Source: Mytilus trossulus
Taxonomy: Eukaryota
DNA length: 64,000 nucleotides
Direction of reading: 5' to 3'
Assembly: GCF_036588685.1 (NCBI RefSeq)
Contig: NC_086376.1
Location: forward strand, 9,920,001-9,984,000
The notes under the pieces were generated by a model that did not search any database, was not told where the DNA came from, and saw only the letters and a list, made by a program, of their open reading frames with translations. Both the position numbers and the translations under genes were made by a program. This document shows, one piece after another, positions 157-39,700 of this stretch; positions within the stretch are counted from its first letter, which is position 1; each line of letters opens with the position of its first letter.

Positions 157-219
157 GCATTTGTCTCAGAAGTTTTTTTCTTCTATATAATTGAATATAA
201 CACTATTAATGTATATAGT

Positions 220-423
220 GGAGGGATTGAGACAATTGCCTGTGGTATAGAGTGGGGGATTGAGACAATTGCCTGTGGTATAGAGTGGGGGGATTGAGAC
301 AATTGCCTGTGGTATAGAGTGGGGGGATTGAGACAATTGCCTGTGGTATAGAGTGGGGGGATTGAGACAATTGCCTGTGGTATAGAGTGGGGGGATTGAG
401 ACAATTGTCTGTGGTATAGAGTC
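220..423. repeat. Minisatellite, ~33-bp unit (gggggattgagacaattgcctgtggtatagagt), ~6 copies
   Basis: Direct tandem copies that differ mainly in G-run length. Confidence 0.95.
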
Positions 424-1094
424 ATTGATAAATACAGCATTTCATGTCTTTGGTCCAATAAAAACAAAGTTAGAAAAAAATGCTATTAATAAAGCAAGGT
501 TTAATACAGAAGTTAAATACAGTACTATCCAACAAAAATCGTTGACCAGGCTTATCAAAATGTGAACTATTCTATCCTTAGATGTGAAAAACTATAATTC
601 TTTCGTAGCACAAAAAAGAATTAAAAAATCCCCTTATATCGAGATATGAAAAGATCCGTTTTCGGTAAATTTAAATTCAGTGCAACTAAGAACAATTTGA
701 AGAGGGCTTTATACCAATCTTGAAAGAAAATAACGCCTTTGCCTATCCTTATTTTGGCAAGAAATTGAGGATGAATATAATTTCTTCTCAGTTTGTCCAT
801 GTTAAATATCATTTAAGGATACCTATATACAAAAAAAATAAAACTATTCTTAATTCTAATTTTATTAATCACAATCAACTTTTACACTGAGGCATATAAT
901 CACACTTTTGAATAGCAGTTTCCCATTAAGAAAGAAAATTGTTTTTTTTTTTACATGTGTCCCCTTTATTCATCATTGACAGTATGTGTAGTCTTCTTTT
1001 TCGTCTGAATTCCACTGTCACTCTTATTGTTGTTAGTTTATTATTTCAATTGTACTAATGTATGCTGTTACCATTTCATAAAGATAGATATTAG

Positions 1095-7000: not shown

Positions 7001-10000
7001 GGTCAACAGGCATTCAATATAATTGACATGTTTATTTTCAACAAGCATTCGATATAATTGACATGTTGATTTTCAACAGGCATTTGATATGATTGACATG
7101 TGGATTGTCGAGAGGTTTTGATTAAATTGACATGTGGATTCTGCACATGCATTATATGTTATTGACATGTGGGTTGTCGACAGGCATTCAATAATAATTC
7201 CAATGTTGATTGTCGATATGATTGATAAGTGGATAAGGGACACGCATTCGATAATTGACGTGTGGACTGTCGATATGCATTCTATATGATTGACGTGTTG
7301 GTTTTTGACGGGCATTTGATGTAATTGTCATGTGGATTGTGGACAGGCATTCGAAATAATTGACATGTTGATTGTGGACAGGTATTAAATGTAGTTAAAA
7401 TGTGGATTGTTGACAGGCCTCAGGTGGAATTGACATGTGGATTGTTGATAGGCAATCGATGTAATTGGCACGTTGATTGTCGAAACGGAATCGATGTAAT
7501 TGACTTGTTGATTGTGGACAGACATTCGATATAATTGACATGTGGATTGTTGACAGGCATTCGATGTAATTGACATGTGGATTGTTGACAGACATCCGAT
7601 ATAATTGACATGTGGATTGTGGACAGACATTCGATATAATTGACATGTGGATTGTTGACAGGCATTCGATGTAATTGTCATGTGGATTGTTGACAGACAT
7701 CTGATATAATTGACATGTGTATTGTGGACAGACATTCGATATAATTGACATATGGATTGTTGACAGCCATTCGATGTAATTGACATGTGGATTGTTGACA
7801 GACATCCGAAATAATTGACATGTGGATTGTGGACAGACATTCGATATAATTGACATGTGGATTGTTGACAGGCATTCGATGTAATTGACATGTGGATTAT
7901 GGACAGACATTCGATATAATTGACATATGGATTGTGGACAGACATTCGATATAATTGACTTGTTGATTGTCGACAGACATTCAATAAAATTGACATGTGG
8001 ATTGTTGACAGGCATTCGATATAATTGACATATGAATTGTGGACAGACATTCGATATAATTGACATATGGATTGTGGGCAGACATCCGATATAATTGACA
8101 TGTGGATTGTGGACAGACATCCGATATAATTGACATATGGATTGTGGACAGACATTCGATATAATTGACATGTGGATTGTTGACAGGCATTCGATGTAAT
8201 TGTCATGTGAATTGTGGACAGACATTCGATATAATTGACATATGGATTGTGGACAGACATTCGATATAATTGACTTGTTGATTGTCGACAGACATTCAAT
8301 AAAATTGACATGTGGATTGTTGACAGGCATTCGATGTAATTGTCATGTGGATTGTGGACAGACATTCGATATAATTGACATATGGATTGTGGACAGACAT
8401 TCGATATAATTGACATGTGGACTGTTGACAGGCATTCGATGTAATTGTCATGTGGATTGTGGACAAAAATTCGATATAATTGACATGTGGATTGTGGACA
8501 GACATTCGATATAATTGACATGTGGATTGTTGACAGGCATTCGATGTAATTGTCATGTGGATTGTGGACAGACATTCGATATAATTGACATGTGGATTGT
8601 CAATATGCATTCGATGTAATTGTCATGTGAATTGTGGACAGACATTCGATATAATTGACATATGGATTGTGGACAGACATTCGATATAATTGACAAATAG
8701 ATTGTGGACAGACATTCGATATAATTGACATGTGGATTGTTGACAGGCATTCGATGTAATTGACATGTGGATTGTTGACAGACATTCGATATAATTGACA
8801 TGTGGACTGTCCACAGACATTCGATATAATTGACATATGGACTGTCCACAGACATTCGATATAATTGACATATGGATTGTGGACAGACATTCGATATAAT
8901 TGACATATGGATTGTGGACAGACATTCGATATAATTGACATATGGATTATGGACAGACATTCGATATAATTGACATATGGATTGTGGACAGACATTCGAT
9001 ATAATTGGCATATGGATTGTAGGCAGACATTCGATATAATTGACATATGGATTGTGGGCAGACATTCGATATAATTGACATATGGACTGTCCAGACATTC
9101 GATATAATTGACATATGGATTGTGGACAGACATTCGATATAATTGGCATATGGATTGTGGACAGACATTCGATATAATTGACATATGGATTGTGGACAGA
9201 CATTCGATGTAATTGACATGTGGATTGTTGACAGACATCCGATATAATTGACATGTGGATTGTTGACAGACATCCGATATAATTGACATGTGGATTGTGG
9301 ACAGACATTCGATATAATTGACATGTGGATTGTTGACAGGCATTCGATGTAATTGACATGTGGATTATGGACAGACATTCGATATAATTGACATATGGAT
9401 TGTGGACAGACATTCGATATAATTGACTTGTTGATTGTCGACAGACATTCAATAAAATTGACATGTGGATTGTTGACAGGCATTCGATATAATTGACATA
9501 TGAATTGTGGACAGACATTCGATATAATTGACATATGGATTGTGGGCAGACATCCGATATAATTGACATGTGGATTGTGGACAGACATCCGATATAATTG
9601 ACATATGGATTGTGGACAGACATTCGATATAATTGACATGTGGATTGTTGACAGGCATTCGATGTAATTGTCATGTGAATTGTGGACAGACATTCGATAT
9701 AATTGACATATGGATTGTGGACAGACATTCGATATAATTGACTTGTTGATTGTCGACAGACATTCAATAAAATTGACATGTGGATTGTTGACAGGCATTC
9801 GATGTAATTGTCATGTGGATTGTGGACAGACATTCGATATAATTGACATATGGATTGTGGACAGACATTCGATATAATTGACATGTGGACTGTTGACAGG
9901 CATTCGATGTAATTGTCATGTGGATTGTGGACAAAAATTCGATATAATTGACATGTGGATTGTGGACAGACATTCGATATAATTGACATGTGGATTGTTG

Positions 10001-12215
10001 ACAGGCATTCGATGTAATTGTCATGTGGATTGTGGACAGACATTCGATATAATTGACATGTGGATTGTCAATATGCATTCGATGTAATTGTCATGTGAAT
10101 TGTGGACAGACATTCGATATAATTGACATATGGATTGTGGACAGACATTCGATATAATTGACAAATAGATTGTGGACAGACATTCGATATAATTGACATG
10201 TGGATTGTTGACAGGCATTCGATGTAATTGACATGTGGATTGTTGACAGACATTCGATATAATTGACATGTGGACTGTCCACAGACATTCGATATAATTG
10301 ACATATGGACTGTCCACAGACATTCGATATAATTGACATATGGATTGTGGACAGACATTCGATATAATTGACATATGGATTGTGGACAGACATTCGATAT
10401 AATTGACATATGGATTATGGACAGACATTCGATATAATTGACATATGGATTGTGGACAGACATTCGATATAATTGGCATATGGATTGTAGGCAGACATTC
10501 GATATAATTGACATATGGATTGTGGGCAGACATTCGATATAATTGACATATGGACTGTCCAGACATTCGATTAATGGCATATGGATTGTGGACAGACATT
10601 CGATATAATTGACCTATGGATTGTGGGCAGACATTCGATATAATTGACATATGGATTGTGGACAGACATTCGATATAATTGGCATATGGATTGTGGGCAG
10701 ACATTCGATATAATTGACATATGGATTGTGGACAGACATTCGATATAATTGACATATGGACTGTCCAGACATTCGATATAATTGACATATGGATTGTGGA
10801 CAGACATTCGATATAATTGGCATATGGATTGTGGACAGACATTCGATATAATTGACATATGGACTGTCCAGACATTCGATATAATTGACATAAGGATTGT
10901 GGACAGACATTCGATATAATTGACCTATGGATTGTGGACAGACATTCGATATAATTGACATATGGACTGTCCAGACATTCGATATAATTGACATATGGAC
11001 TGTCCAGACATTCGATATAATTGACATATGGATTGTGGACAGACATTCGATATAATTGACCTATGGATTGTGGGCAGACATTCGATATAATTGACATATG
11101 GATTGTGGACAGACATTCGATATAATTGGCATATGGATTGTGGGCAGACATTCGATATAATTGACATATGGATTGTGGACAGACATTCGATATAATTGAC
11201 ATATGGATTGTGGACAGACATTCGATATAATTGACATATGGATTGTGGACAGACATTCGATATAATTGACATATGGATTGTGGACAGACATTCGATATAA
11301 TTGGCATATGGATTGTGGGCAGACATTCGATATAATTGACATATGGACTGTCCAGACATTCGATATAATTGACATATGGATTGTGGACAGACATTCGATA
11401 TAATTGACATATGGATTGTGGACAGACATTCGATATAATTGACCTATGGATTGTAGGCAGACATTCGATATAATTGACATATGGATTGTGGACAGACATT
11501 CGATATAATTGACATGTGGACTGTCCACAGACCTTCGATATAATTGACATATGGATTGTGGACAGACATTCGATATAATTGACCTATGGATTGTGGGCAG
11601 ACATTCGATATAATTGACATATGGATTGTGGACAGACATTCGATATAATTGACATATGGATTGTGGACAGACATTCGATATAATTGACATATGGATTGTG
11701 GACAGACATTCGATATAATTGACATATGGACTGTCCAGACATTCGATATAATTGACATATGGACTGTGGACAGACATTCGATATAATTGGCATATGGATT
11801 GTGGGCAGACATTCGATATAATTGACATATGGACTGTCCAGACATTCGATATAATTGACCTATGGATTGTGGGCAGACATTCGATATAATTGACATATGG
11901 ATTGTGGACAGACATTCGATATAATTGACATATGGATTGTGGACAGACATTCGATATAATTGACATATGGACTGTCCAGACATTCGATATAATTGACATA
12001 TGGATTGTGGACAGACATTCGATATAATTGACATATGGATTGTGGACAGGCATTCGATATAATTGACATATGGATTGTGGACAGACATTCGATATAATTG
12101 ACATATGGATTGTGGACAGGCATTCGATATAATTGACATATGGATTGTGGACAGACATTCGATATAATTGACATATGGATTGTGGACAGACATTCGATAT
12201 AATTGACAGGTGGGT
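1095..12215. repeat. ~11 kb satellite array, 35-bp monomer (cattcgatataattgacatRtggattgtSgacagR), ~300 copies, with 33-bp variants and higher-order duplications
   Basis: 35-bp period, clearest at 10320-12200. Degenerate at left, homogeneous at right. Higher-order offsets of ~105, 842 and 1468 bp. Confidence 0.97.
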
Positions 12216-12417
12216 TGTCGTAAGTGAACTTTAATTTTAAAAACTTGTATCATACTTTATGCAGATGACATAGTCTATCATACATTTTATAAATTTCTAA
12301 TAAAGGTTAGCAAGATTGTATTTTTTCTATAAGAACAATACAGTTTTTAATATTGTGAATAATTAAAATAGAACAGTGTAAAACAAGTAGAAAAATCCAA
12401 CTGTACTCTCGTCTTTT

Positions 12418-15400
12418 TTACTGTAACATATTTGAGTGTTGTAGGCAGTGCTTTAGATACAGGGCCAGTCCAATATGTGATGTTTTAAATCTTGGAGGTA
12501 CATCTTCATACAACTGACCGGTCGTATCGTATAAGTGACGTAGTAAGACCTACAATATAAAAATATCTCATATGAGTTTAATATAATTAGCTTGAAGAAA
12601 TGACCTTGTCTGCTTAGAAAATTCGCCCCTTCAAGAAACATAAATAACTGAAGTAACTTATATCAGATGGCTAGGGCTTGTAACTATATCATATGGCTAG
12701 GGCTTGTAACTATATCATATGGCTAGGGCTTGTAACTATATCATAGGGCTAGGGCGGCTTGTAACTATATCATATGACTAGGGCTTGTAACTGTATCATA
12801 TGGCTAGGGCGGCTTGTAACTATATCATATGGCTAGGGCTTGTAACTATATCAGATGGCTAGGGCTTGTAACTGTATCATATGGCTAGGGCGGCTTGTAA
12901 CTATATCATATGGCTAGGGCTTGTAACTGTATCATATGGCTAGGGCGGATTGTAACTATATCATATGGCTAGGGCTTGTAACTATATCAGATGGCTAGGG
13001 CTTGTAACTATATCATAGGGCTAGGGCTTGTAACTATATCATATGGCTAGGGCTTGTAACTGTATCATATGGCTAGGGCGGCTTGTAACTATATCATATG
13101 GCTAGGGCTTGTAACTGTATCATATGGCTAGGGCGGCTTGTAACTATATCATATGGCTAGGGCTTGTAACTGTATCATATGGCTAGGGCGGATTGTAACT
13201 ATATCATATGGCTAGGGCTTGTAACTATATCAGATGGCTAGGGCTTGTAACTATATCATAGGGCTAGGGCTTGTAACTATATCATATGGCTAGGGCTTGT
13301 AACTGTATCATATGGCTAGGGCGGCTTGTAACTATATCATATGGCTAGGGCTTGTAACTGTATCATATGGCTAGGGCGGCTTGTAACTATATCATATGGC
13401 TAGGGCTTGTAACTATATCAGATGGCTAGGGCTTGTAACTGTATCATATGGCTAGGGCGGCTTGTAACTATATCATATGGCTAGGGCTTGTAACTGTATC
13501 ATATGGCTAGGGCGGATTGTAACTATATCATATGGCTAGGGCTTGTAACTATATCAGATGGCTAGGGCTTGTAACTATATCATAGGGCTAGGGCTTGTAA
13601 CTATATCATATGGCTAGGGCTTGTAACTATATCATATGGCTAGGGCTTGTAACTATATCATATGGTTAGGGCTTGTAACTACATCATATGGCTAGGGCTT
13701 GTTACTATATCATATGGCTAGGGCTTGTAACTATATCATATGGCTAGGGCTTGTAACTATATCATATGGCTAGGGCTTGTAACTATATCAGATGGCTAGG
13801 GCTTGTAACTATATCATAGGGCTAGGGCTTGTAACTATATCATATGGCTAGGGCTTGTAACTATATCATATGGCTAGGGCTTGTAAGTATATATCATATG
13901 GCTAGGGCTTGTAACTATATCATATGGCTAGGGCTTGTAACTATATCATATGGCTAGGGCTTGTAACTATATCATATGGCTAGGCTTAACTTCTTTTTAA
14001 TATAATAAATAACAATAACAGTAAGCAATTCGCCATTTTAACAAACCAGTTTACCATATTGTAGAAAGGCTTAGGCTGATTGACTTTTGTGTGGAATTAA
14101 TTATGATTATCACTTATACTCACTGTATCGGTTATTTTTATTTTTATTTGCATGCAGAATGTAAATTCATTTTTCCTGTTAGTTTCATTTTTGTTATTAA
14201 TTTATGATATCATACTCCCCGACAATAGAGCTTCTTGTGTGTTTTAAAAAATATTTGCAACGTGACCATTTAGGAGGATTACTAAACCGATAGATGGATA
14301 AAATCTGATTAAATTGGACTAACTTCCCAAATAAACAAGTAAAACTGCGAGCTACTGCTCACTGATGATACCCCCGCCGCAAGTGGATAATATATTAATA
14401 GTGTAAAAATATGCAAGTGTTCGATAAACAGGAAATTGACGAGGAATGAATCTGAAAACGCATCACACGGTATAGCTGACTTATATAAATCCTGAAACCA
14501 AATTTCAGAAATCCTTGTATTGTAGTTCCTGAGAAAAATGTGACGAAAATTTTCAACTTGGCTATCATGTGTAAAATCATACAAGTGTTCGGTAAACAGG
14601 AAGTTGTCAAGTGATCAATCTAAAAACGCATCGCACGGTATAGCTGACTTAGATAAATCCTGAAACCAAATTTCAGAAATCCTTGTAATGTAGTTCCTGA
14701 GAAAAATGCGACGAAAAATATTCATGGGACGGACTGACTGACGGACGGATGGACGGACTGACGGACTGACGGACTGACAGACAGAGGTAAAACAGTATAT
14801 CCCCCTTTTTTTTAAAGCGGGGTATAATTAGAGAATCATAAGAGTCTGATCACTCACCTGCGTACACATAATACAAGGAAGTGAAAGTTAAAACTAGATG
14901 TGTCAAAGCGACACGAATGGCCCCGTCCCAAAAAGTTGGAAAATCTGCAATTTCAATAACACATGTTGACACTTGTAAACATGATGGTAGTCTCACATTG
15001 ATGTGTTCATAATTATATTTTTTTTAAATCAACTGTTAACAAAACTCAGCTCAAAATGTGGAGGCCTATGGAAAAAAAGTCTGTTTAACTGTTAACAAAA
15101 CTCAGCTCAAAATGTGGAGGCCTATAGCAAAAAAGTCTGTATAACTGTGATTTTCAGCAATTTTCAAAGTTGTAAACCCTTAATTTTGGCAAAAAAACTT
15201 GGCAAAAATTAATGGAGAGGAACAAAACTTAAACTTGATTTATAACTCATCATGGTTTTAAAACTCACAAACCAAAAATCAGCCCAATATCTGAAGCGTT
15301 TAGAAAAAAACTCCGTATAACTGTGATTTTCAACAATTAATCAAAGTCCAAAGCGCGTAATTGCAGTAAAATTTAGCGTAGCGGAACGAAACTTAAACTT

Positions 15401-16734: not shown

Positions 16735-19700
16735 ATGGTGCAGAAAATATCCAAACGGGGTGTCCACTCAGGGAACACCCTCAGAGCATCAAATTCAAGG
16801 TAAGTCAATACAAAATTAAATGTGCTTTTCGTGTTATTTCATTGTGTTTTGAAAACAATATCAAAATGTAAAGTACATGTGAATTGATTAAAATCAGTTA
16901 ATAAAATTAATGTGCTCCTGAATATATCATTACAACGACCCCCCCCCCCCTAACCCACCTTTTCCATTGCCTACAATTGCTGCTAGTTTGAATATTGGTA
17001 AACATTTATCATCATCGAGAGAATTTTGTCAACTTATAATCACATATTTCCAAACCTTTTCGTTTGTTAACACTTGACACCAGACTTGTCTTTATACACC
17101 CTAATTCTCAGGTGTTTTATTAATTAAACTTCGAAACTTTTATAATAAATCTAATGCTAGAATTAATCATATGAAAATGTATTTCAGCTACATTAGCTAG
17201 TGCTACTTAATTAGCCCTCGCATATAGACATTCTAAACTTTACTTTGAAGTCGTCGAAAAGTCACTCGTCATATGTATACTTAAGGTGGGCTGGCTGTGG
17301 CCTATTCGAAGTTTCTATCAGAAGTGCCGTATTTTTTGTTATTTTACTCTTTACAGAAATTGAATCAAATTGGTCGAAACAATAGGGGTATCAAAAAACG
17401 TTCTATGACACTTGGTCCAAAACTGTAATACACAAATCTTAAATATAGCTTCAAAGAATGAGCAAATAAAAAACATAGATCACCGAATAGGGAAAAAAAA
17501 TATTTTGCCTTCAGACCTTTTAATCACATAACTACAATGATTTAACAAGTTCTAATCAATCGAAATATTTAAAAAATATTGGTATTTCATTGTAGGTTCA
17601 ATCGTACATACAGTAGGAGATCTTGTCTTCTAAGAAAGTCATGGAGTCCAACAGCAGTGAAAGATACCATTTTGGAAGACCTAAATATCGATAGAGATGA
17701 TGTGTTATATTCGCTCAATAAAAAGGGAAGATGGGAACTTCCGGAAATGCTGAAAAATTCCATTTTGACAGGAAGCTACAAGAACTTGAAATCAAACGTC
17801 AAGTTAATTGTATCCCATGACATCCGAAAGAAAAGTCATACTGTTGGGTACTATTCCTCAAAAGGAAATACGAAGAAAATAGAAAGTAAAAAGAAAACTT
17901 ATTTCAACGGGGAATCAGTCGTAGCTCAAAGCAGAATAGACGACAAAACTGGTACACAACCTATCCTTCAAATTGAAGTCGTTTACCCTAGTCCATCAAC
18001 ATGTTCAGTAGTTCACAATCCAAAATATGTCGGGCATTATATTGATAAACCTGAAAATGGGCGTGGCCGAACAACAAAAGCCAGAAGACAAAGGGAGAAA
18101 CTCAGTGTTGGTCAATACTATGACGAATATTGCGAATCATTTCAAGATAATTATGACGACGTATCCGAAACGGAAGCGGAGTTAGACGATGAATCTGCTT
18201 CGTACCTGTACGAAAACGCTAATAAAGAAGACGTCACAAACACAGAACTATTAGAAGATATCATGATACATGCTGCTTTAATGCAAAGTTTGTGTCAAAG
18301 AAACAACATTAACTATTTTGCAAAGCACATTTTCGAATCTAAAGACAGAAAAATATATGAACCTAAAATGACGGCAGACGAAACGGAAACGCCCCAAATC
18401 GAAGAACCTACAAGTTTAACTGTAAATGAGAATAGAAAAACAATGGAGCCCGTGTTTGTCTTACTTCCAAAAAGAGAAGTAGAGAGTTCGTTGTTGAAAG
18501 AACGATATGGCAAAAGCTATGTTGAATGTCCTTGTTTACCACGAAAGTTTCTAATCGATGTTAGCGACAGAATGAAAATGCGATTGAAAAACTCCGGATG
18601 TTTGAAAGCAGAAATCTTAAAAAATTGGGACCTGACCTCCTGCGTTGTATTTACATATGATGAATACGATGTTAACAGCACAGAGACACACAGCGTATTT
18701 AGAGTATGTCTTAATATTGGAACAAACTCAGAAAAATTCAGAATTTTGACAATGTTTGACTATTACAACGGTTGCGTAGAAGATGTCTTACACAGAGCTG
18801 TGACATTCCTAGATATGATGTCGACCGACGGATTTATAGAAAATGAAAAACTTCCCCCGATAGAAAGTTTGTCCATGAAATTTGAAAATTTGAACAATTG
18901 TCAAAATTTTAAGAAAGACGCGTCTTTAGTTTCGCGGAAAACGCTATTTAAAGATATTTTTAACAGCAATTTGAGGGACAATGAAACAGTTGTTGAACTA
19001 GGTTATGAATGCATTTCGTCAGAATTTTGTGGAATTTGCTATGACTTTATAGCTGAAGGAGGAAAACCTGGAACAGCTCTTTCATCCTGTGGCCATTGGT
19101 TCTGTGATGAATGTTGGATAGACCATTGCAGATCGCGTATGATTATGGGTTCTGTGAACATAACATGTCCAGAACATGGATGCAAAGAAACCGTCGCTGA
19201 AGCTGTACTTTTGACATTTATAAACGTGTTCGAAGTAATTAGTTTAAAACGACGAGACCATGACCTTAAGTTGCAGGCTTCTGACGCTAAATGGTGTCCA
19301 AATCCAAACTGTTGTAGGGTAATCACAGTAACTAATCCGGAAAAAGCGAAGGATGTTGCGTGTAAGTGTGGAACACACATTTGCTTCCAATGCTTGCAAC
19401 CACCACACTGGCCAGTTCCATGTGATAAAGTGCCAGCCTACTGGAAAAAGTTGAAAATGAATGGTGACGACATCACCATATCAGAAACATTTGTAAAGGT
19501 CCGTGGGAAATCATGTCCGAAATGTAAAAGATTCGTTGAGAAACTGGGTGGCTGTTTCTATATGAGCTGTGTATGCGGAGCTGAATTTTGCTGGGGATGT
19601 TTAGGCACGTATCCAAACCACGTAGCGAGTGAAAAATGCAATCAGTACAAACATGGAGACATTAAAGGAACGAGTACTCTGCAGGTAACGGAAGTGGATG

Positions 19701-20212
19701 GTTATATTAATCTATCGAATAGAAACAGAAGTGGAGATTACAAGAAAGCCGTTAACCACCGCAAGAGTCGCCATCCACTTAAAATAAGCCAAATAAGATC
19801 AGGCTCTCGTCAGATCATATTTAAATGTAAAAACGTTGCCAAAAGAAAAGGACCCCTATATTTTCAAATGTTTAAGGGTACAGAAGATAATGTTTCTATA
19901 TATTCAGATGTAGAAGAGAAGATTAAGGAGCTACTGAACAATATAGTATCGGTCTACATAGAGCTCCATCACATGGCAGAATATTGCTACGTGTTTATTG
20001 AAAAACTTATGAAATCTGGTATTAAATGTTCACATCTTCGAGGAAATGCTGAAATGCTGGGTTATTTAGCCGATAGGATATTTAGTATTTTAACAGATTC
20101 CGCTGAAGTGAAGGACTGCCGACCACTTCTCTCTTCCTTGTTACAAATTCAACAAAAATCAGTAGATGTCACGAAAAACATTGTTTCAGTCACTAAAAAG
20201 TTTACAGTATAA
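16735..20212 (+). CDS. Ariadne-like RBR (RING1-IBR-RING2) E3 ubiquitin ligase, paralog 1, ~893 aa. Exons 16735-16799 and 17596-20212
   Basis: RING1 CGIC..CGHWFCDEC..CPEHGC, IBR WCPNPNC..CKCG.HICFQC..HWPVPC, RING2 CPKC..EKLGGCFYMSC.CGAEFCWGC, helical C-terminus. True ATG is in a 65-nt exon (MVQKISKRGVHSGNTLRASNS, AG|gtaagt) spliced in phase 2 to ttgtag|GTTC. Confidence 0.9.
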
Positions 20213-20980: not shown

Positions 20981-23900
20981 TTAAACATTTCTGGATCAAA
21001 TCAAAGGCCTCGTTAAATGGGATTTTCTTTTATTATTTTACAGATCTTTTGATATTTCCTTTTATATTTATTTTTTTTTGCACCGAAGAAAAGACATTAA
21101 TCTAAAAATTTAGCCCGACACACCGAAGAAAAGACCTCAATTTGAAAAGTTAGCCCGATATTCTGAACGCATCTGGGAATGAACCCGCGCTTAAAATAAG
21201 GAGATGTGTTAAATATGGCCTCTGTCGACCAGTTTCATCAGCGAAAGTCAGCAATCATGGGTAACTATATGGTCTTCAACATTGAGCAACATCCATACTG
21301 TATAGTATTTTATATTTTAAAATGCCCGACACTTTGTATGCAAAAGAGAGGCGAAAGATACAAAAGAAATATTCAAGTTCATAAAAAAATTGACAGTTAT
21401 GGTTAAAAAGATAGAAACAAATGTCAGCAAACTTTCACCAATGTTACTTCAAATAACTTAATGTTTATATGGAACCCGGATAACTATGAGGTAATTGTGG
21501 AATTTATTGCTTAAAAAGATTTCTTAAGGTATACCAGGACCATTTAACAAAATCTGTAGTTTAACGCCCACTCTCATCAAGAAAACATTTCTAACTTTAG
21601 TTTAAACTTGTAACTGGGGATTTCACAAAATTCTTTGCATGTTTTCAGTGAATTTGTACAAAATCAAGGAAACTGCTAGTACCAATTGCTCAAAATCAAT
21701 GAAACTGCTAGTACCAATTGCTCAAAATCAATGATTCTTATATTTATATTTACAAAATCCCTCATTCTTTAAGTGATTTTATGAAACTCCCAGCTACAAA
21801 TACGCACATTATATTGATTATATATACAATATGTCTAGCGTTTGAAAATGTGATCGAGTCTACGGTAAAAAAAATAATAATATTAAAAACTAGCATAAAA
21901 CAATCAAAACTCTACCGTCAACAATTACATCCAACTCTTCAAATAACGAAAAACATTCGAAGATTATTTACCACATCTATTGGCGAGATTCATGACTGGG
22001 TACATTTGTTGGGGTTGAGCCAGTGTTTTTCGTCCCCATTTTACCTTAATCGCTTCTCTATGACAGGTAATTGTCTCAGATTTTTACATTATGTATAAAT
22101 AGGTAAATTGGGTTGTCTTCTCAAAATGTATATATATAAACTATTCTAATATGACGTGCTTCTTTCGCTTTGTAAACAACACTGTGTGAAAATTCTCGAT
22201 ATATCTATACTTAGCGCAGACTCAGAGATATACATAATAATGGATGTTACAATATACCTCCCACGTAAATCCACATGTATTTGAACCTACATTGCAAACG
22301 CTTTGCCAAATTTATTGTATTACTAATTTTAATTAAACAAAAAACATTGCAGAACTTTTATTCTTATTCAGATGCATAATAAAAAGAATTAATGTATTGC
22401 AACTAGTTTTGTTTATTTCCTAAATATAGTAACACTGTATATTTTGTGCAATGTCAATTTCATCATGGAACACTTTCTCTACAATGAGGGGTTCATTAAG
22501 GGATGCAAATAAGCTTGATATTTATGTTACGATTTAAAAAAAATATCAAAACACTAATTTAAGTTGCAGTATAAAAACAATATTTAGTCAATATCACAAA
22601 AATAAAAACTTTTTTGTAACCAACGAAGTTCGTATAATATTGTATTAAAATGGAATTCTGAGGTTTTCTATTCTATTGCCTTTGATTCAGCGAGTCAACA
22701 TGGCAGCTCCTTCTTTACGAAATGTCAATTTTGGATTTGACGGTAGCTTACGGGAAAACATGTTGTAAATTAAAAATCGGAAATATTGGGTTTGAGAATT
22801 AAACATATTTTTTCTAGCGGTTATTAACGAAATAATCAATGCAAGTTAAAGATGTATGAGCATGTTTGAGCTTTATCTAACAAGGAGTAAAAAAGAACAG
22901 CTCCACACACGGCATACCAACCCTCGATTCAGTATTTAAATTAACTTATTTGTCCTATTAGAATCGAAATAATTCATGGAAGCCATAGATCACGGCCGAC
23001 ACTCGGCTAACCGAGAGATAGGTCTGTTAATCTATATTGAGTATGCGGCTATATCGGCGGTGGGTCTGTTAATCGGGTTGGCTAAAGTCTGTTAATCAGG
23101 CGTTATCGTGAAAATCAGTGCAAGGTCAGCATGTTTCATTGTATAACTTTTTTATTATATTTATATCATAAAAACTATTTATGTCTGACAAAATGATTTG
23201 GAGTACTGAATCCAGTGGTGTAATTATTTTTTTTCTAGCTTCAATAAACGATCTATAAAATGAAAAGGCGAGTTACTCATCAGTAAATGTATACACATTT
23301 TACACACACACAATGTACACAAAAATGACAAGTTGGTTGAGTTTACTTGCATGCAATCTTTTGAACATCGAAAAAAGACTGGCATTATGTTTGTTTACCA
23401 TATTAACATCAATATGTGAAAAATCTACACGAAAAACTGTATTTTGGTGACATAAATCAATTTTTGATAAAAAAATATGGTCTGTTAATGGGTCGGATGT
23501 ATAAAACTCGGTCTGTTAATTGGTCTGTTAAGAGTTATGAATGACATTACAAGTATAATTTAATTGCCATATGGGGTGTTATCTGAATAAAGAGATAGGC
23601 CCAAGATTAGTGGCTAGAATGAATGGAAACAACACATGAACAAGGATACATAAGTTTAGACAATGGAATCTGAAAATTGATGAAAATGATTTTAAAAAGT
23701 GTAAAATCAAAGTAATATTAATTTTATCAAAGTATGGTCGCATTAATCATGTGGATTCTGTTTCATTGATATGAATGACACCAATTTGTCATTTACATAG
23801 TTAAGAAGTATATTAAGCAGAGATAAACTTTCTAATGTTTGGATTTTTTTATCAAATGAACTGAAATATGTTTATAATGCAAACAAATATAGACAAACCT

Positions 23901-24378
23901 TTCAACATTAACCTTTCTCTACATTACCTTGAAGGTCACTCAATAGAAAAACAAGCACGTTTGTGGACTGCGAGTCGGCTAAATGACTTACGATATCATA
24001 GGAATACATCATTACTCGAAAAATAAAATTAATATGCATTTATTGTAATTTACAGGAATATAAAAGTGTCTTGTTGTTACACATTGAATAAGCACCCAAC
24101 ACTTATATAAAAAAACTTACTAATGTCTATTTCTTGTTTAGAACCACAGTTTAGAACTTGGTACAGACATTTCGATCCTTAGGCGGCAGAAAATGAGAAT
24201 GATGACTCGGTACAAAGGAAATAAACTCCTCATAGATACCAGGATTGAAATTTGATATTTGCGCCTTATATTTATGCCAGACACGCGTTTCGTCTACGAA
24301 AACCTCATCAGTGACGCTCGAAAAAAATGTTTAAAAGGCCAAAAACAAAGTTGAAAAGCATTTAGGAAATACAACTAA

Positions 24379-25079
24379 TACCGGCGTCACACATCAGCGT
24401 ATAGCTCCGGCGTGTTAAAAATCATTTACGCTGCCTATATGCTTTAAGCGTGTATTAGGCGTACTAGAAGCGTACATAAAGCTGAGCGTTTATTTGGCGT
24501 TCAAGAAACGTATGTTGGCGTATGTTGTATGTTTTTTATGCTGCATAAAAATTTCCTCGGGTTGCAGCGTTCATCAAGCGTATTAACTTTCCTTCAGTGG
24601 CTAGAGGTATAGGGGGAGGGTTGATATATCATAAACATGTTTATCCCTTCCGCAATTTTACGCCTGTCCCAAGTCAGAAGCCTATTGCCTTTGTTAGTCT
24701 TATATGATTTTTAATTTTAGTTTTTGTGTATAATTCGGAGTTTATTATGACGTCCATTATCACTGTACCAGTATGCATATATTTAAAGGGGCCAGCCGAA
24801 GGACGCCTTCGTGTGTGGGAGTTTCTCTCTACATTGAAGACCCATTGGTGGCCTTTGTCTGATGCCTGTTCTATGGTGTCGGGTTGTTGTCGCATTGACA
24901 CATTCCCCATTTCCTTTCTCAATTTTACCTTTGTATTTCGACGTACTTCAAACTTATGCAACGCGCTTTGAAGGATTACTAAGCGTTCCTATGGCATGCA
25001 ACTAACGTATACCGACTTTGTCAGTTTTCTCTGTACGTTTGGTGCACGCTGGTCTATCCGCCAATGTGTGACGCCGTCA
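24379..25079. mobile_element. PIF/Harbinger-like MITE nested in the TIR transposon
   Basis: TIR cggcgtcacacat / atgtgtgacgccg. TAA TSD at 24376-24378 and 25080-25082. It interrupts another repeat (..gaaatacaactaa|ggtaatctattcctgagg). Confidence 0.7.
24594..24927 (+). mobile_element. ~330-bp interspersed repeat (SINE/Helitron-type, class uncertain) nested in the Harbinger-like MITE
   Basis: Homologous copies at 52863-53165 and, independently, 45255-45500 (shared ..gacacattccccatttcc..ctcaatttt end). Confidence 0.7.
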
Positions 25080-26458
25080 TAAGGTAATCTATTCCTGAGG
25101 TAGAAAAGCCTTAGTATTTCAAAGAAAACGCATGGAATTTAATCAGCTGAATTGCAACACATGACATATTCATAGATGTTACAGACTTTAAAAAATAAGG
25201 CTGATTGATAACTTGGCGTAAATAATAAATGCATGCGAATTCGAGCGGCAAATAAGTCTATATAACGCTAATTTGAAGTGACTCACCCTTTTAATGAAAT
25301 GCAGAGAAAAAAAATAAAAGTGCTCTTTCTACTGTTGCACGGTATTGTAAATTTTTCGTCATAAGTACATCTCATTGCTTTTCAATGTGAAAATATAAAC
25401 TCAAGGTAGTGAGACTATTGTCGTGGCTAAATAACTCTTAACTGACATGATTTAAATTGTCCAACCCATTAACAGACTGTATTCCCCTAATTTTCATTAA
25501 AATGTGGTATAACTCAACTTATATAACAATTATGAAATATTTATCAATGACAATTGATTTTTTTGGAACCAAAGTACTACTTTGTGTCCTTTAAATCATA
25601 TCTAAAAATGGTTTTTGGCCTTTTATCTAAAATATTGCTATGCGTACAAGCACAAAAAACACATACTTGCGCTACGCCTTTTCGTTTTACTTAAAATTGC
25701 GCAGGCTATGCATTTTTTTTAATGGTGGAAAATGTTCTATGATATATATCATTTTGCCAGACACTTTTCTTTTTTTGATGTGATTTTCATAATGTGCCAA
25801 AAAATCTGTATATTTAACAGAGTTTAACATTAAATGGTGAGTTTTCCTCTTAACAGACTTTAGCCAACCCGATTAACAGACCCACCGCCGATATAGCCCT
25901 ATACTCAATATAGATTAACCGACCTATCTCTCGGTTAGCCGAGTGTCGGCCGTGTAGATTTGTTGGAAATTTACACATGGCCTGGGCCGTGATATTCGTT
26001 AATTTTATCCCTCGCTAACGCTCAGGATAAAATTCGAATATCACGGCCCAGGCCATGTGTAAATTTCCAACAAATCTATGGCTTCCATGAATTATTTCTT
26101 AAGTATATGACGATCCATTTCCCGTTATGAAACAAGACAGTAATACATTGTTACAGTCGTTTAAAAATCAATATTTCTTGGTTTTTTAAAAAATTCTGTT
26201 CTGAATGGTAATATGCGTTATCATACAACTATCATCAAGTTTTCGTATGTTTACTTTAATTCGAGGGAGATATCAGAGAACGTACCTATTTATCACACTG
26301 TTTTATCTTAAACTATTTACTTACAATTTTGTCCTATCAATAGTCTAATTCAAACATTGCACCACAACCGTGTAATACAACGACAGTATAAATAGATAAC
26401 TATCAACGACTTTTCTTAACAACAGAATAGAACAGAAAAAGCGTTGAACCACCAGACA

Positions 26459-29400
26459 ATGGTGCAAAAAAAATCCAAACGGGGTGTCCACTCCGGGAAC
26501 ACCCTCAGAGCATCCAATTCAAGGTGAGTCAAGGAAAAATCAATCCTGCTTTCCGCGTTATTTCGTTAGGCTATATCAAAGCATTAACGGCAAACTATAA
26601 GAACTTAGTTGAATGAAATGAAATAATAAATAAATATATAATAAATAAATAAAATCGGAAAACAAATGAATTTGAATTTTTAAGAATCTCCTTTTGCATG
26701 CACTTCACGCAATATTCCTTTTACCATATTTTATTATGATCACCAGGCGAAAATATTTATGACACGATTAACAATTTCGTTTCCAAATGTCTTTCTATCG
26801 GATTTTATTATCCATATAAAACATTTATTGTTTATGCCCCACCTACAATAGTAGAGGGGCATCATGTTTTTGGTCTGTATAACAGTCATATGTACAATAA
26901 AAGTAACTTCACTGTTTGGTAGGTGTGGGGCTAAAAAAATACCCTTGCATAAATGCGATAAGTTTGTGATTTAAAAATATTGGTTTTACATTGCAGGTTC
27001 AATCGTACATACAGTAGGAGATCTTGTCTTCTAAGAAAGTCATGGAGTCCAACAGCAATAAAAGACACCATTTTGGAAGATCTAAATATGGATAGTGATG
27101 ATGTGGTATATTCGCTCAATAAAAAGGGAAGATGGGAACTTCCGGAAATGCTGAAAAATTCCATTTTGACAGGAAGCTACAAGAACTTGAAATCAAACGT
27201 CAAGTTAATTGTCTCTCATGACATCGCAAAGAAAAGTCATACTGTTGGGTACTATTCCTCAAAAGGAAATATGAAGAAAATAGAAAGTAAAAAGAAAACT
27301 TATTTCAACGGAGAATCAGTCATAGCTCAAAGCAGAATAGACGACAAAACTGGTACACAGCCTATCCTTCAAATTGAAGTCGTTTACCCTAGTCCATCAA
27401 CATGTTCAGTAGTTCACAATCCAAAATATGTCGGGCATTATATTGATAAACCTGAAAATGGGCGTGGCCGAACAACAAAAGCCAGAAGACAAAGGGAGAA
27501 ACTCAGTGTTGGTCAATACTATGACGAATATTGCGATTCATTTCATGATATTAATGACGACGAATCCGAAACGGAAACGGAAACGGAGTTAGACGATGAA
27601 TCTGCTTCGTACCTGTACAAAAACGCTAATAAAGAAGACGTCACAAACACAGAATTATTAGAAGATATCATGATACATGCTGCTTTAATGCAAAGTTTGT
27701 GTCAAAGAAACAATATTAACTATTTTTCAAAGCAGATGATCGAATCTAAAGACAGAAAAATATATGAACCTAAGATTACGGCAGACGAAACGCCACAAAT
27801 CGAAGAACCTACAAGTGTGGCTTTAACTGAGAATAAAACAATGGAGCCTGTTTTTGTCTTGCTTCCGAAAAGAGAAGTAGAACGTTCATTGTTGAAAGAA
27901 CGATATGGCAAAAGCTATGTTGAATGTCCTTGTTTACCACGAAAGTTTCTAATCGATGTTAGCGACAGAATGAAAATGCGATTGAAAAACTTCGGATCTT
28001 TGAAAGCAGAAATCTTGAAAAATTGGGACCTGACATCCTGCGTTGTATTTACATATGATGAATATGATGTTAACAGCACAGAGACACACAGCGTATTTAG
28101 AGTATGTCTTAATATTGGAACAAACTCAGAAAAATTCAGAATTTTGACAATGTTTGACTATTACAAAGGTTGCGTAGAAGATATTTTACATAGAGCTGTG
28201 GCATTCCTAGATATGATGTCAACCGACGGATTTATAGAAAATGAAAACGTACCTTCCAAAGAATGTACATCCTCCATGAAATTTGAGAATTTGAACAATT
28301 GTCAGAAAATTAAGAAAGAAGTATCTTTTGTTACGAGAAAAACGCTATTTAAAGATATTTTCAACAACAGTTTGAGTGATAATGAGACAGTTGTTGAACT
28401 CGGTTATGAATATATTTCGTCAGAATATTGTGGAATTTGCTTTGATTTTAAAGCTGAAGGCGGAAAACCTGGAACAGCTCTTTCATCATGTGGCCATTGG
28501 TTCTGTGATGAATGTTGGATAGACCATTGCAGATCGCGTATGAATATGGGTTCTGTGAAAATAACATGTCCAGAACATGGATGCAAAGAAACCGTCGCTG
28601 AAGCTGTACTTTTAACATTTATAAACGTGTTCGAAGTAATTAGTTTAAAACGACGAGACCATGACCTTAAGTTACAGGCTTCTGACGCTAAATGGTGTCC
28701 AAATCCAAACTGTTGTAGGGTAATCACAGTAACTAATCCGGAAAAAGCGAAGGATGTAGCGTGTAAGTGTGGAACACACATTTGCTTCCAATGCTTACAA
28801 CCACCACACTGGCCAGTTCCATGTGATAAAGCACGAGCTTACTGGAAAAAATTAAAACTGCTTGGAGACGACATTGCCATATCAACATCATTCGTAGATG
28901 TCCGTGGGAAATCGTGCCCGAAGTGTAAAAGGTTCATTGAGATTCTAGGTGGTGTCTGTAGCTTTATGAGTTGTCCATGCGGAGCTTATTTCTGCTGGGA
29001 ATGTTTAGGCACGAATCAAGACGGCAACCATAAATGGACTGAAAAATGCAGACAGTGCATTAAAAAACCATTGAGAGGAACAACTACTATACAGGTTACC
29101 GAAATGGATGGTTATTCTAATGTATCAAATAGAAATAGAAGTGGAGATTACAAGAAAGCTGTTCACCATCGACAGGGTCGTCACCAACAAAAAATAAGCC
29201 AACTCAGAAAAGGTTTTCGTCAGATCATATTTAAATGTAAAAACATTGCCAAAAGAAAAGGACCACTATATTTTCAAATGTTCGATGGTACAGAAGATAA
29301 TATTTCTGTTTGTTCAGATGTAGAAGAGAAGATCATGGAGTTACTGAACAATATAGTATCGGTCTACATAGAGCTCCATCACATGGCAGAATATTGCTAC

Positions 29401-29622
29401 GTTTTTATTGATAAACTCATAAAATCCGGTATTAAATGTTCACAGCTTCGAGAAAATGTTGATATGCTTGGTTTTTTAGCCGATAGGATATTTAACATTT
29501 TAACAGATTCTGGTGACGTGAAGGACTGCCGACCACTTCTCTCATCTTTATTACAAATTCAACAAGAATCAGTAAATGTCACGAAAAACGTTTTTGCGTT
29601 CACTAAAAAGTTCACAGTATAA
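26459..29622 (+). CDS. Ariadne-like RBR E3 ubiquitin ligase, paralog 2, ~896 aa. Exons 26459-26523 and 26997-29622
   Basis: Same architecture as paralog 1. 65-nt first exon MVQKKSKRGVHSGNTLRASNS AG|gtgagt, acceptor ttgcag|GTTC. RING2 CPKC..EILGGVCSFMSCPCGAYFCWEC. Confidence 0.9.
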
Positions 29623-33700: not shown

Positions 33701-36700
33701 ATTGGCCCCCAAAAAGGGGGGTTCCTACCCCCGGACCAATCCGCCACTGCAAATTACTGATCTGAGAGTATTCCAAGTTATAAAAGTTAGTTCAAAGACA
33801 ATTTACTTGTAACTTAAATTGATTTCGTATACATTTTCACGTTTATTAGGTACTGGGATACCGTATAGAACACCTGGTCAAAGTTCACGGAATAAGAATG
33901 GTAAGATTAAACGTCCAATGAATGCCTTCATGATATGGGCAAGAACAGCAAGAGGAAAGCTGGCTGAAGAAACCCCAAACGCATCAAATGCTGAAATAAG
34001 TGTCAAATTGGGAGAGTTGTGGAGTCATTTGGCAAAGGAAGAGAAGCAGAAATACTACATGGAAGCAGAAAGGGTAAAAGCAAGACATAGACAAGACTTC
34101 CCAGGTTCGCAGTATTACAATTCTCTCACAAAAGTACCAATGAAAATTACAGATATATAGTACTATTTTTAACCCTGCATCAAATGATAAAAACTATTCA
34201 CAAAAAAACAATTTTTACATCATTTTCCATAAAATCATCGATACACTAATTTATTTCTGTCAACTTTACATTTGATATATTGACTGTGAGAGGAAGAAAA
34301 ACAATAAAAGCGATTCTCCTATGGTACTCAGTGGGGTTTTCATGTGAATGATATTTTATACACCATCTTCTTTTCCCCCAACAAGCTAGTGCTTCAAAAT
34401 TTGTGAAAATCAATAAAATTTTAGGCGATGATGTGTGCTAGGATTGAGTTAAAACAATTCTAGACTAGACTATTGGAATATTTCATAGAAATCCGTATTA
34501 TCGAATCTAAATAATGTTTGCCATACAGTAGGTTTGATTTTTTTATGAGGGGGAGGTGGGGAGTTCATAGGTTTAAATTATTTTCTAGATGCTATCATGG
34601 TTTATAATCATTAAAAAAAATATTTCAAAAAAGGATGGCTATAAAGATGTTGTAAAAACAACCGCGAGGATAAGTTTAACAGAAGAAAAAAAACTAAAAT
34701 AGATTTCAATTCAATATTCATCAAACCATTTTCTGTACAATAACTTCATATCTTTAAGTGCTAGGTGAATAAGCATGCATAACTCTTTATTTCATATTAA
34801 TCAAATTAATTCTTAAATCGATTCTATTATGATTCAAAATTGCCATTCAATTTCTTATAATCTTTGAAAAAATGTTTGCTCTTTTAAATAGTTAACAGTT
34901 TTTACTGTGGCATAATGCTTATCCCTTTCAAAATCTAAACCATTTAAAACTGACGGGTGGTTCCATACAAAGAGTAAACGAAATACGAAGATACCCAACA
35001 GAAAAAAAAGAACATTTGAAAGCCGTTTTGATTTGTTTAAAAATTGGACCTTGATTTGATTTATTTTGTTCTTTAACGAATCAGAATTCAATTATTCTAG
35101 ATTGGATTTATCAACCAGAGCCATCAACAAAGAAAGGCGTTGAGGAATGTGGTACCACTCTCAATCACAGACAGCTATGGAGTAAATATAACGAAAGTCG
35201 ACCAAAAATGGCTCCAAGTCAGATTGCACCGACACCTCAAGGACCTTTCATTAACTTTATTGGACAACAAAACAGACCAATATTACCCCGCAATGTAATG
35301 CCTATTCAACCTGTAACAATGCTACCTCAAGGTAACCAGTTTGTCTGTCCGCCAGGACTACGAATCGTTCAACCAATGCAATATCCCATGTATGGACAGC
35401 AATTCCAGCCGAGGAATTTCTTGAATGGTATGTTAATTATATTTACCTGTCCTCTATACAGCAACACGTATTACTATGATCAATTATATATACATCTCAG
35501 CAATAACCAGCCATCTTTATATACGCAAGACTGAATATCATATCACATTTTTATTCAACTGTATTTATCATTTAGGGCATTTTATACTAGTAATCATACA
35601 TAAAAATCAGTTACTAAAATATTTGGGTCTAATCAGTATATATATATGTTACAGGCATTTTCTAGATTTAGGCATTTTGTAACATATACATCCATATAAG
35701 ACTTGAGATTATTATATATTATTTTTTTATTCATGCTTAGGAAATCAGATTCCTTATCAAGACGTCCCAAGATTACAAACAGCAGGAATACCCGACTACA
35801 ATGCCGTACAAAATGTCACAATAATACACCCCAAGCCATTTCCAGTTCAAATACCAGCTCCAAGAGGAAGGCCGCCTGTTGTCACTGAAAGACTTAAAGG
35901 TATGTTTAGTTAGAATGACTATAGATATCATGATCATCATTTAACATGTATTACTTAAAACAATGACTCGGGAAAGTAAGGTCTAGACCAAAATAACGAA
36001 AAGTCAACATTGACCAATAAATCATAAACAAATTCAGTTGCACACTTTCGGATGGACATGGTCATTCATGATTACCTTTTTTTTTAAAATTAGGACATGT
36101 GATGTCATTGACAATGAGATAACTATCTATCAGAGACCAAATGAAGCGGATTCAAGCAAATAAAGGTAACCGTACGACCTTCAACAATGAGCATATACCG
36201 TATATTCAACGGAAAACGGGCTCGACATGTTAACATATTAAAGAATATATGAAAGAAAAAAATGGGCTGATTTATGCATAACAATAAGCGAAAAACATTT
36301 GCACCTGTCCTAAGTCAGGAATCTGATGTACAGTAGTTGTCGTTTGTTTATGTAATATATACGTGTTTCTCGTTTCTCGTTTTGTTTATATAGATTAGAC
36401 CGTTGGTTTTCCCGTTTGAATGGTTTTACACTAGTAATTTTGGGGCCCTTTATAGCTTGTTGTTCGGTGTGAGCCAAGGCTCCGTGTTGAAGGCCGTACT
36501 TTATAACCTATAATGGTTTAATTTTTAAATTGTTATTTGGATGGAGAGTTGTCTCATTGGCACTCACACCACATCTTCCTATATCTATGAAATTAGCAAC
36601 CAACGACAAACACTGAATTACAAATTCCTGACTTGGAACAGGCATATACATGGAAACTGGTAAAGTTAACCATTAATTTCTCTAAACAAATTATTTTGTA

Positions 36701-39700
36701 TATCACTATAAAATTTTAACAGACGTATACACCTTACAATCATTTTCAGTGGTAAACGAACTTGACTAAGAAATTGAGTTCAAGGACGACAGACATATGC
36801 CAGAAACTTCAGACCATGGCATGAGTCATTTGTATTTTAGATGTGGATTATTCAGTTTATCTACCTTATGTTCTGTGCTGCGATATTCTTCGCAGACGAG
36901 ATAATGTAACAAAAGTTATATACTAGTATATGCGAGGAATACTTGTGACAGTTGTGTTCATGCCCTGTGACAGTGAGCTGAATTACCGATTTTTGGCTAT
37001 ATCGTCTATCAATGAGTATTATTTATTTCTGCATTACATACTACACTAAATAATTCATGCTTTTCTTGCACACATATATCATTTTTATGAATTCAGCTGT
37101 CCCAGCAAACTTACAGGCAAAGATTCAAGCTGAAGCAGCAGGGAAAACAGATCATCATCCTATCGTATTGGAAAGCAAAGACTGTAATGCAACGGAAAAG
37201 AATGAAAAGACAAATAAAGAATGCAAGAAAGATACACCAGAAACATCTGATAATGGAAACAATGACAAGCCAGTAGAGGATAAGGAGCAAAAGACAAAGA
37301 AAGCACAAAGGACACGAAAAAAAGACAATGATAATAAAAAATCGTAAGACATTTGCATGTTAACATTTATACCATATGTGATATACTTAGCAACCATCCT
37401 TAGAACTATTCGTTCGACCTATTTTACAGAACTATTCAATTACCATGGAATCGGTTCAATCCCACATCTAGTTTCAATTGGTGTTATTTATATCTTTTGA
37501 TAAATACTAGCCTATGTATCTCATCTGTCAGTATTTTTTAAAAGGAGTTGTTTTTTCTCACTTATATGCCAAAACGGCAATCTTTTGCAAAATAGTCATG
37601 TAGATTTTTCTTTAAATAAATGGATTAGAATGATGATCTTCAATCTACAACCTGTGATTGATGTAGCAGAGTATCATAAGAAGTAACGGATTCTGAAAAA
37701 AAAAGTAATCAAAATAGCTTGCAGTGTGTTTATATCCTTTCCCTTAGACAATATGTATATTAGTTAATTGAAATGTTAGTTAAAGAAAACGCATGATTGC
37801 ACCAAACAACATTGCATTTTGTTTTTAATAAAATATGGTTCTAGATCTTCAAAGAAATCAAAGAAAGCAGACCAAAGTAACACCTTAGACACAGACAAGA
37901 CTACCGATGATGATTCAGAACTTGCCTCTACCACTCTTCCCGGAAGTACGACACAGCTGAGAGAGGAACATCCAGAAGACTTTTGGCCATTCCCATTCCC
38001 ACCAGCAGAGCAGGAATCTCACGTGGACGATATGTTTGAGGGTAATAACTTCTTATGAAATTTTATATTTCCAACAATTTTGACAAATGAATGAACGAGC
38101 TTGTTATAAAACCAAGAAGATACTGCAACATGAAAGAAATCTAGTTGCAGTCCAATCATTTACAGCTAATTTTAGTACCAGACACATTCCATTGTCATAA
38201 AACCGGTTTAAGTAGAATTTATTTCATATCAAGTTATGATTTTTTTTTCAAGCTATTATGGTTTTACTCATTTTGTGATATATTATAATCGGAATAGCAA
38301 TACGGTTATTAAAGGGTTTTTGTACTGTTGTCTCTGTTTCTATTAATAACAGTACTTTACCTTACCTTTCAGGTCCAATCGATGATACCATAGTAGAAAG
38401 AGATCCATATAATACCTACTTCTGTAGAGAGAAGGAAAAGGGAGAAGACGATAAACTAAATGTAGATGTCTCTAGGTAAGAACCTCTTCAGTAGCATAAA
38501 CATTGTACCTACTTCTTTAGAGAAAAGGAAAAGGGGAAGACGATAAACTACATGTAGATGTCTCTAGGTAAGAACCTCTTCAGTAGCATAAACATTGTAC
38601 CTACTTCTTTAGAGAAAAGGAAAAGGAGGAAGACGATAAACTAAATGTTGATGTCTCTAGGTAAGAACCTCTTCAGTAGCATAAACATTGTACCTACTTC
38701 TTTAGAGAAAAGGAAAAGGGGGAAGACGATAAACTAAATGTTGATGTCTCTATGTAAGAACCTCTTCAGTAGCATATACATTGTACCTACTTCTGTTGAG
38801 AAAAAGAAAAGGGGGAAGACGATAAACTTAATGTAGATGTCTCTAGGTAAGAACCTCTTCAGTAGCATATACATTATACCTACTTCTGTAAAGAAAAAGA
38901 AAAGGGAGAAGACGATAAACTAAATGTTGATGTCTCTAGGTAAGAACCTCTTCAGTAGCATATACATTATACCTACTTCTGTAGAGAAAAAGAAAAGGGA
39001 AAAGACGATAAACTTAATGTAGATGTCTCTAAGTAAGAACCTCTTCAGTAGCATATACATTGTACCTACTTCTGTTGAGAAAAAGAAAAGGGGGAAGACG
39101 ATAAACTACATGTTGATGTCTCTAGGTAAGAACCTCTTCAGTAGCATAAACATTACCTACTTCTTTAGAGAAAAGGAAAAGGGGGAAGACGATAAACTAA
39201 ATGTTGATGTCTCTAGGTAAGAACCTCTTCAGTAGCATAAACATTGTACCTACTTCTTTAGAGAAAAGGAAAAGGGGGAAGACGATAAACTAAACGTTGA
39301 TGTCTCTGGGTAAGAACCTCTTCAGTAGCATATACATTGTACCTACTTCTGTTGAGAAAAAGAAAAGGGGGAAGACGATAAACTTAATGTAGATGTCTCT
39401 AGGTAAGAACCTCTTCAGTAGCATAAACATTGTACCTACTTCTTTAGAGAAAAAGAAAAGGGAGAAGACGATAAACTACATGTTGATGTCTCTAGGTAAG
39501 AACCTCTTCAGTAGCATATTCATTGTACCTACTTCTGTTGAGAAAAGGAAAAAGGGGAAGACGATAAACTAAATGTTGATGTCTCTAGGTAAGAACCTCT
39601 TCAGTAGCATAAACATTGTACCTACTTCTTTAGAGAAAAAGAAAAGGGAGAAGACGATAAACTACATGTTGATGTCTCTAGGTAAGAACCTCTTCAGTAG

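Follow-up and report, generated by a model that had tools for sequence, protein, structure and literature searches.

Transib transposons classically combine CAC termini with a target-site duplication (TSD) of 5 bp, and their ends carry the heptamer CACAATG and an A-rich nonamer whose positions 5-6 are almost perfectly conserved in 21 families (PMC1131882). The Transib and RAG-like (RAGL) termini covered here from the supplement of PMC9435367 begin CACAGTG, CACTA or CACACCC, and subgroup II Transibs include elements with symmetric terminal inverted repeats (TIRs; PMC9435367). Protostome RAGL transposons are described with CAC ends and a 5-bp TSD; their consensus, CACTWMCAAACKTYKBB, places AAA at positions 8-10 (PMC7204232). 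In the CMCT clade (CACTA, Mirage, Chapaev and Transib; RAG1-related), lineages mostly have CA..TG termini and TSDs of 2-5 bp (PMC12730594); for CMC elements (CACTA, Mirage and Chapaev) TSDs of 2-4 bp are given (10.64898/2026.08.26.747230). The latter source, a 2026 preprint, also describes Transib-clade elements with 3-bp and TA duplications, reports that TIRs and TSDs vary widely, and holds that transposase homology should outrank both in classification (10.64898/2026.08.26.747230). Here we describe a transposon family that occurs twice in a 64,000-nucleotide stretch of the Mytilus trossulus genome (GCF_036588685.1, contig NC_086376.1, positions 9,920,001 to 9,984,000; hereafter the window) and that joins CAC termini and 5-bp TSDs with long, motif-rich ends.

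Copy 1 occupies positions 22991-25954 (2964 bp) between two TAGAT pentamers (22986-22990 and, on the plus strand, 25955-25959), and copy 2 occupies 51244-54447 (3204 bp) between two GGTAT pentamers (plus strand, 51239-51243 and 54448-54452). Comparing flanks over lengths of 1-11 bp revealed a direct repeat in both copies at length 5 only, apart from a trivial 1-base match beside copy 1. Two such 5-bp matches are expected by chance at ~2.6e-6, and this spacing holds for both full copies in the window. The TIRs start with CACGGCC; they are 105 nt long and 97% complementary in copy 1 (22991-23095, plus strand; 25850-25954, minus strand) and 103 nt long and 98% complementary in copy 2 (51244-51346, plus strand; 54345-54447, minus strand). 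The window contains their terminal 16-mer four times, whereas 100 shuffles give an expectation of 0.03. Aligned to each other, the copies match over 2014 bp at 91.6% and over 684 further alignment columns at 93.4%, and are wholly different at 25005-25287 of copy 1 versus 53243-53765 of copy 2. Their divergence is 2-6.5% according to part: 1.9% in the left TIR, 2.7% in the left arm, 6.1-6.5% in the interior, 4.1% in the right arm and 3.8% in the right TIR. The flanks of the two copies are unrelated, and they are therefore two independent insertions. Chance TSDs and segmental duplication were both rejected because of these unrelated flanks and because similarity ends at the termini. The two copies represent a genuine multi-copy family of DNA transposons of ~3 kb without a detectable gene. 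A preliminary description of this sequence had reported both insertions, their TSDs and TIRs of ~105 bp starting with CACGGCC, and each was found where it had been placed.

The 5-bp duplication is demonstrated unusually cleanly at this locus. Copy 1 is inserted into a near-perfect palindromic mini-element of 133 bp (22966-26098), in its left arm; the opposite arm contains a single TAGAT. The left piece of this host palindrome (22966-22990, 25 nt) ends in the left TSD and is 100% complementary to 26074-26098; the remainder lies at 25960-26098. Taking out copy 1 together with one TAGAT leaves a 64-nt arm with zero mismatches to the right palindrome arm. Because the intact right arm holds one copy of the target, it acts as an internal empty-site control and shows the copy 1 TSD directly. 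No second copy of the mini-element was found within the window. At copy 2, two contigs of public run X7 match as far as the final left-TSD base, 51243, and then run on for 109 and 99 other letters, and the depth of bin 54500-54626 is 26.5 against the 27.0 predicted if these contigs enter the right flank. The X7 contigs are suggestive of empty alleles of copy 2 in that run, the empty-site joint itself not being among the matches shown.

Searching metagenome contigs with the TIR returned two loci, L001 and L002, and we compared their right ends with the four ends from the window. All six terminate in CAC and share identical first 29 bases. The motif GTC(T/G)GTTAA is placed 32, 74 and 97 bp from the element end (at 23022, 23064 and 23087 in the left TIR of copy 1), with a related GGTTGGCTAA at 86 bp. 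It recurs further inside, 490, 521 and 533 bp in from the left end (copy 1, 23480-23531, with three GTCTGTTAA; copy 2, 51731-51782; both plus strand) and 478 and 509 bp in from the right (25438-25477 and 53932-53971; both minus strand), where two motifs mirror the left cluster with the same 31-bp spacing. Altogether there are ten motifs in copy 1 and nine in copy 2, all pointing inward, versus one in 45.5 kb of the remaining window, a background count that omits the mostly satellite positions 1-12300. These inner clusters agree with the preliminary description, which had placed one ~490-530 bp from the left end and an inverted copy ~480 bp from the right. Its claim of three motifs per TIR stands in relaxed form: the exact 10-mer GTCTGTTAAT is present three times in one of the four window TIRs, and the other three TIRs reach three copies with one mismatch. 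The first motif copy reads GTCGGTTAA in five of the six ends, and the third is variable in the right TIRs.

Neither copy holds a detectable transposase remnant. Only one open reading frame (ORF) of at least 90 codons exists in either copy, inside a very high-copy repeat (24687-24925, again at 45260-45498) that forms part of a nested unit in copy 1 resembling a miniature inverted-repeat transposable element, with imperfect 30-nt inverted ends (24375-25083). In copy 2, depth peaks over the part that matches this repeat. Against Pfam, 15 queries from the copies, 12 of them whole frames and 3 short, gave no match at the curated cut-off, the sole match of any kind being PV-1 at E 0.2, and none of six frames of L001 matched. 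Three word-index protein searches and one full phmmer scan likewise returned no transposase; they covered three frames (the PHD-like frame described below, the copy 1 left interior and the L001 interior) with stops as X and no frameshift correction, making them weak negatives. Neither RAG1-like nor RAG2-like (kelch-PHD) sequence was detected in the two copies or L001. In a codon-usage scan the elements scored at best 11.1 versus 13.2 in control DNA that includes some exons, and nothing in them rose above control. Two sub-threshold Rfam matches were rejected.

One segment of copy 2 (53243-53765, plus strand) is absent from both copy 1 and L001 and is repeated elsewhere in public runs. Its frame 53283-53540 is, by eye, Cys/His-patterned like two decayed PHD fingers and is followed by AATAAA, behind which ten RNA fragments from run X23 have their ends, at 53587. 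The PHD-like reading requires several frameshifts, and the frame found no match in Pfam, the word-index search, PDB sequences or 1.84 billion protein representatives; we treat it as an unproven lead by eye. Run X23 placed 7925 RNA reads on the copy 2 stretch, 7599 of them only partially and 7660 at below 95% identity. These reads derive from related repeats and show no transposase transcript.

The family recurs in public data. Part of the left 1.2 kb is contained in 20 of the 24 runs listed, spanning 12 studies, with gill and mollusc metagenomes and five coded organisms among the labels. These labels, together with nested repeats of kinds known from Mytilus, are consistent with a mussel host. 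Four runs were placed on copy 2. In run X10 core contigs have ~12-15 times the depth of the flank contig, and in X7 ~50 times, rough ratios in which (summed) contig depth does not equal copy number. The outer arms are far deeper still than the core, and short derivatives therefore probably outnumber full elements by far. Conserved arms of ~850 bp (left) and ~650 bp (right) surround variable interiors: X10 record 15 joins 52377 to 53797 via 345 other letters, and L001 retains the right arm (82-85% match, 12% divergence) and 124 bp of the left, with different DNA between them. Copy 2 differs from five long native-part X1 contigs at 41 of 1760 letters (2.3%), in a comparison that leaves out three shorter or more diverged X1 pieces. 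This low divergence suggests that the family is young on an evolutionary scale; nothing shows present activity. The preliminary description had proposed a RAG1-related transposase recently active in trans. The need for a transposase in trans stands and recent activity receives moderate support (2.3% from X1; 2-6.5% between the copies), and a distant relative of RAG1, the enzyme that shuffles antibody genes, is a likely but unproven source of it, no RAG1-like sequence having been found.

Exact TIR patterns had no match in viral contigs or prokaryote genomes. A looser pattern pointed to viral loci L003 and L004, which we dropped as chance: blastn gave no similarity to copy 1 at those sites, and L003 has a single 13-base match to copy 1, elsewhere than the pattern site. 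Two further palindromic mini-elements lie inside or beside the diverged copy in L001 (2978-3119 and 3596-3771). The right arm in L002 (4769-5438, 97% to copy 2) shares its contig with a bacterial region (1-4610) whose genes we take, by resemblance, to be dnaA-rpmH-rnpA-yidD-yidC; the junction most probably reflects chimeric assembly of a host-associated sample.

In our classification the element is a non-autonomous TIR transposon carrying CMCT-type ends, its superfamily left open; both copies fall within the broad CMCT range of CA..TG termini and 2-5-bp TSDs. Its CAC ends and 5-bp duplications suggest that it was probably moved in trans as a cut-and-paste element by a CMCT-clade transposase; DDE transposases of this clade carry C(2)C and H(3-4)H motifs. 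Within that clade Transib is the likeliest single group, a possible and unproven partner that we name tentatively. Several observations weigh against these assignments. CACGGCC agrees with the Transib heptamer CACAATG at three of seven positions. None of six spacer lengths (11-13 and 22-24) places AA at nonamer positions 5-6, the best score being three of nine, as the preliminary description had said in noting the absence of an obvious nonamer. It had also called the long, motif-rich TIRs atypical, and for Transib or RAGL elements this is supported. Lengthy termini in which binding motifs are repeated are more characteristic of hAT and CACTA elements. Transib prefers GC-rich targets, and those here are not clearly so, with 31% and 46% GC over 35 bp versus 34% for the window (n=2 sites); the available TSD pairs number two since L001 and L002 supply right ends only, and the Pfam and protein searches gave no transposase for the copies or L001. 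Because Transib TIRs and TSDs vary widely, failing the consensus lowers Transib without removing it. What is not supported as established is the preliminary claim that CAC termini with a 5-bp TSD characterize Transib and RAG elements, since hAT5 families also make 5-bp duplications (PMC12730594) and Transib-clade elements occur with 3-bp and TA duplications (10.64898/2026.08.26.747230).

Under the CMCT reading, a transposase from an autonomous relative would bind the inward GTC(T/G)GTTAA repeats in the TIRs and in the mirrored clusters ~480-540 bp inside, pair both ends and cut at the terminal CAC. The ends would then be joined to the target with a 5-nt stagger, and host repair would write the duplication. 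Were the enzyme a Transib, it would cleave via a nick and a hairpin, the route described for RAG and HzTransib (PMC10462144). The interior would be passive cargo that acquired other repeats before the family amplified, and the left TIR and arm have changed more slowly than the interior, which fits selection on the ends during amplification. A more speculative version, which we consider rather unlikely, invokes an undescribed RAG1-related mussel lineage that kept the 5-bp stagger and CAC cleavage, recognizes its ends via arrays of 9-10-bp motifs and inner sites ~500 bp in, as CACTA and hAT do, and may carry a PHD-bearing gene. If true, it would link heptamer-nonamer and subterminal-repeat recognition within the RAG1 clade.

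The main rival holds that the partner is an hAT5 transposase and that the repeated motifs are the subterminal binding sites usual in hAT elements. We judge this unlikely, and equally so that the partner belongs to another or undescribed CMCT lineage. An A at position 2 and a G at position 5 of the terminus agree with the hAT consensus, and the targets are not clearly GC-rich; however, CAC..GTG marks the CMCT clade, TIRs in hAT elements usually fall well short of 105 bp, and Pfam found no hAT remnant in the copies. The 5-bp TSD of hAT5 families, placed among animal hATs (PMC12730594), matches that of the element, and a mollusc survey lists hAT among the richest DDE groups in bivalves, with a single Transib ORF across all the molluscs it covered (PMC10294476).

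A deletion derivative of a RAG1L-RAG2L (ProtoRAG-type) transposon, a type in which the two genes are convergent, with the PHD-like stretch of copy 2 as a decayed RAG2L end, seems very improbable. Such pairs are described in two mussels, within a protostome group that shares the CAC ends and 5-bp TSD (PMC7204232), and the Cys/His-patterned frame with X23 RNA ending behind its AATAAA would suit a gene end. Yet that frame demands frameshifts, is without a protein match, and is confined to copy 2 among the three elements compared, and coding potential in the element does not exceed that of control DNA. The TIR has GAC, not AAA, at positions 8-10. Beyond CAC it agrees with the protostome RAGL consensus at 8 of 14 degenerate positions, for which the chance P is 0.15, and over the first 11 bases it agrees at 6. 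Missing this consensus bears out the earlier preference for Transib-type over ProtoRAG-type ends, and the RAG link is a reasonable guess at the level of the clade but weak for RAG1L-RAG2L transposons. Some other long-TIR superfamily with an unusual TSD length, such as Academ, is also improbable, if less so. Bivalves have abundant, long Academ elements (PMC10294476), but Academ TSDs are given as 3-4 or 9-10 bp (PMC10045372). No homology was found. Some Academ elements do carry PHD fingers and long TIRs; Ginger2 and long terminal repeat elements end in TG..CA.

A full-text literature search with the first ten TIR bases returned no transposon paper among the matches listed. No such TIR appeared in the supplementary files covered, namely nine files of PMC7204232 (first two places per term), one of PMC9435367 and 12 of the 33 of PMC10294476, and the family may already be catalogued.

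Other features of the window include several repeats and genes. Copy 1 lies between two paralogous tandem ORFs of ~880 aa on the plus strand (17573-20212 and 26962-29622), apparently intronless and with IBR domains (RBR E3 ligase-like). Copy 2 is flanked by minus-strand exons of a WD40 gene (56733-60834) and of a second gene (44517-47406), which by resemblance are presumably BUB3-like and Cdc25-like, respectively. Positions 1098-12220 hold ~317 tandem copies of a 35-bp unit, with long minus-strand frames free of stops, and a 26-bp tandem array (12653-13984) comes after them. Downstream of an HMG-box exon (33813-34160), a 93-bp unit is repeated 30 times at 92% (38413-41199); by eye each unit consists of a 48-nt exon-like and a 45-nt GT..AG intron-like part, and the whole could be a tandem exon-intron array. 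Three further units with long inverted repeat borders (36299-41864, 48895-50363 and 58387-63955) probably represent mobile or foldback elements of other kinds.

For now the element adds a further non-autonomous DNA transposon family to a mollusc genome rich in repeats, ordinary until its partner is found, and its main value is as bait for that autonomous partner. Set beside the single Transib ORF of the mollusc survey (PMC10294476), a family of many copies that combines CAC ends with 5-bp TSDs points either to a missed RAG1-related transposase that reads its ends differently, or to an hAT5 with CAC ends. If the partner proves to be hAT5, CAC plus 5 bp would not be a safe marker of RAG-like elements.

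Among described systems, repeated subterminal binding motifs are typical of CACTA; subterminal repeats are also typical of hAT, but CAC..GTG termini with a 105-bp TIR are not. The element resembles non-autonomous Transibs (TransibN1-N3_AG, Hopper/Kodama) in its CAC..GTG termini, 5-bp TSD, lack of a transposase and symmetric TIRs, which are possible there (PMC1131882, 10.64898/2026.08.26.747230). It differs from them in a heptamer, CACGGCC, that is not CACAATG-like, in having no A-rich nonamer, in a 105-bp TIR of repeated motifs with mirrored inner clusters, and in targets that are not clearly GC-rich. With the protostome RAGL transposons of oysters, pearl oyster and mussels it shares bivalve hosts, CAC termini, a 5-bp TSD and non-autonomous TIR pairs, but it has a long symmetric TIR rather than a 13-15-bp core and is without RAG1L or RAG2L sequence (PMC7204232). 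hAT5 families share with it a 5-bp TSD and animal hosts (PMC12730594); under the Repbase rule, membership of a known family would show as termini that match over bases 1-11 (PMC4455052). EnSpm/CACTA and Chapaev/Chapaev3 elements have CAC termini in common with it, and differ in making TSDs of 2-4 bp (3 bp in Chapaev3), whereas the duplication here is 5 bp (PMC12730594, PMC3014272).

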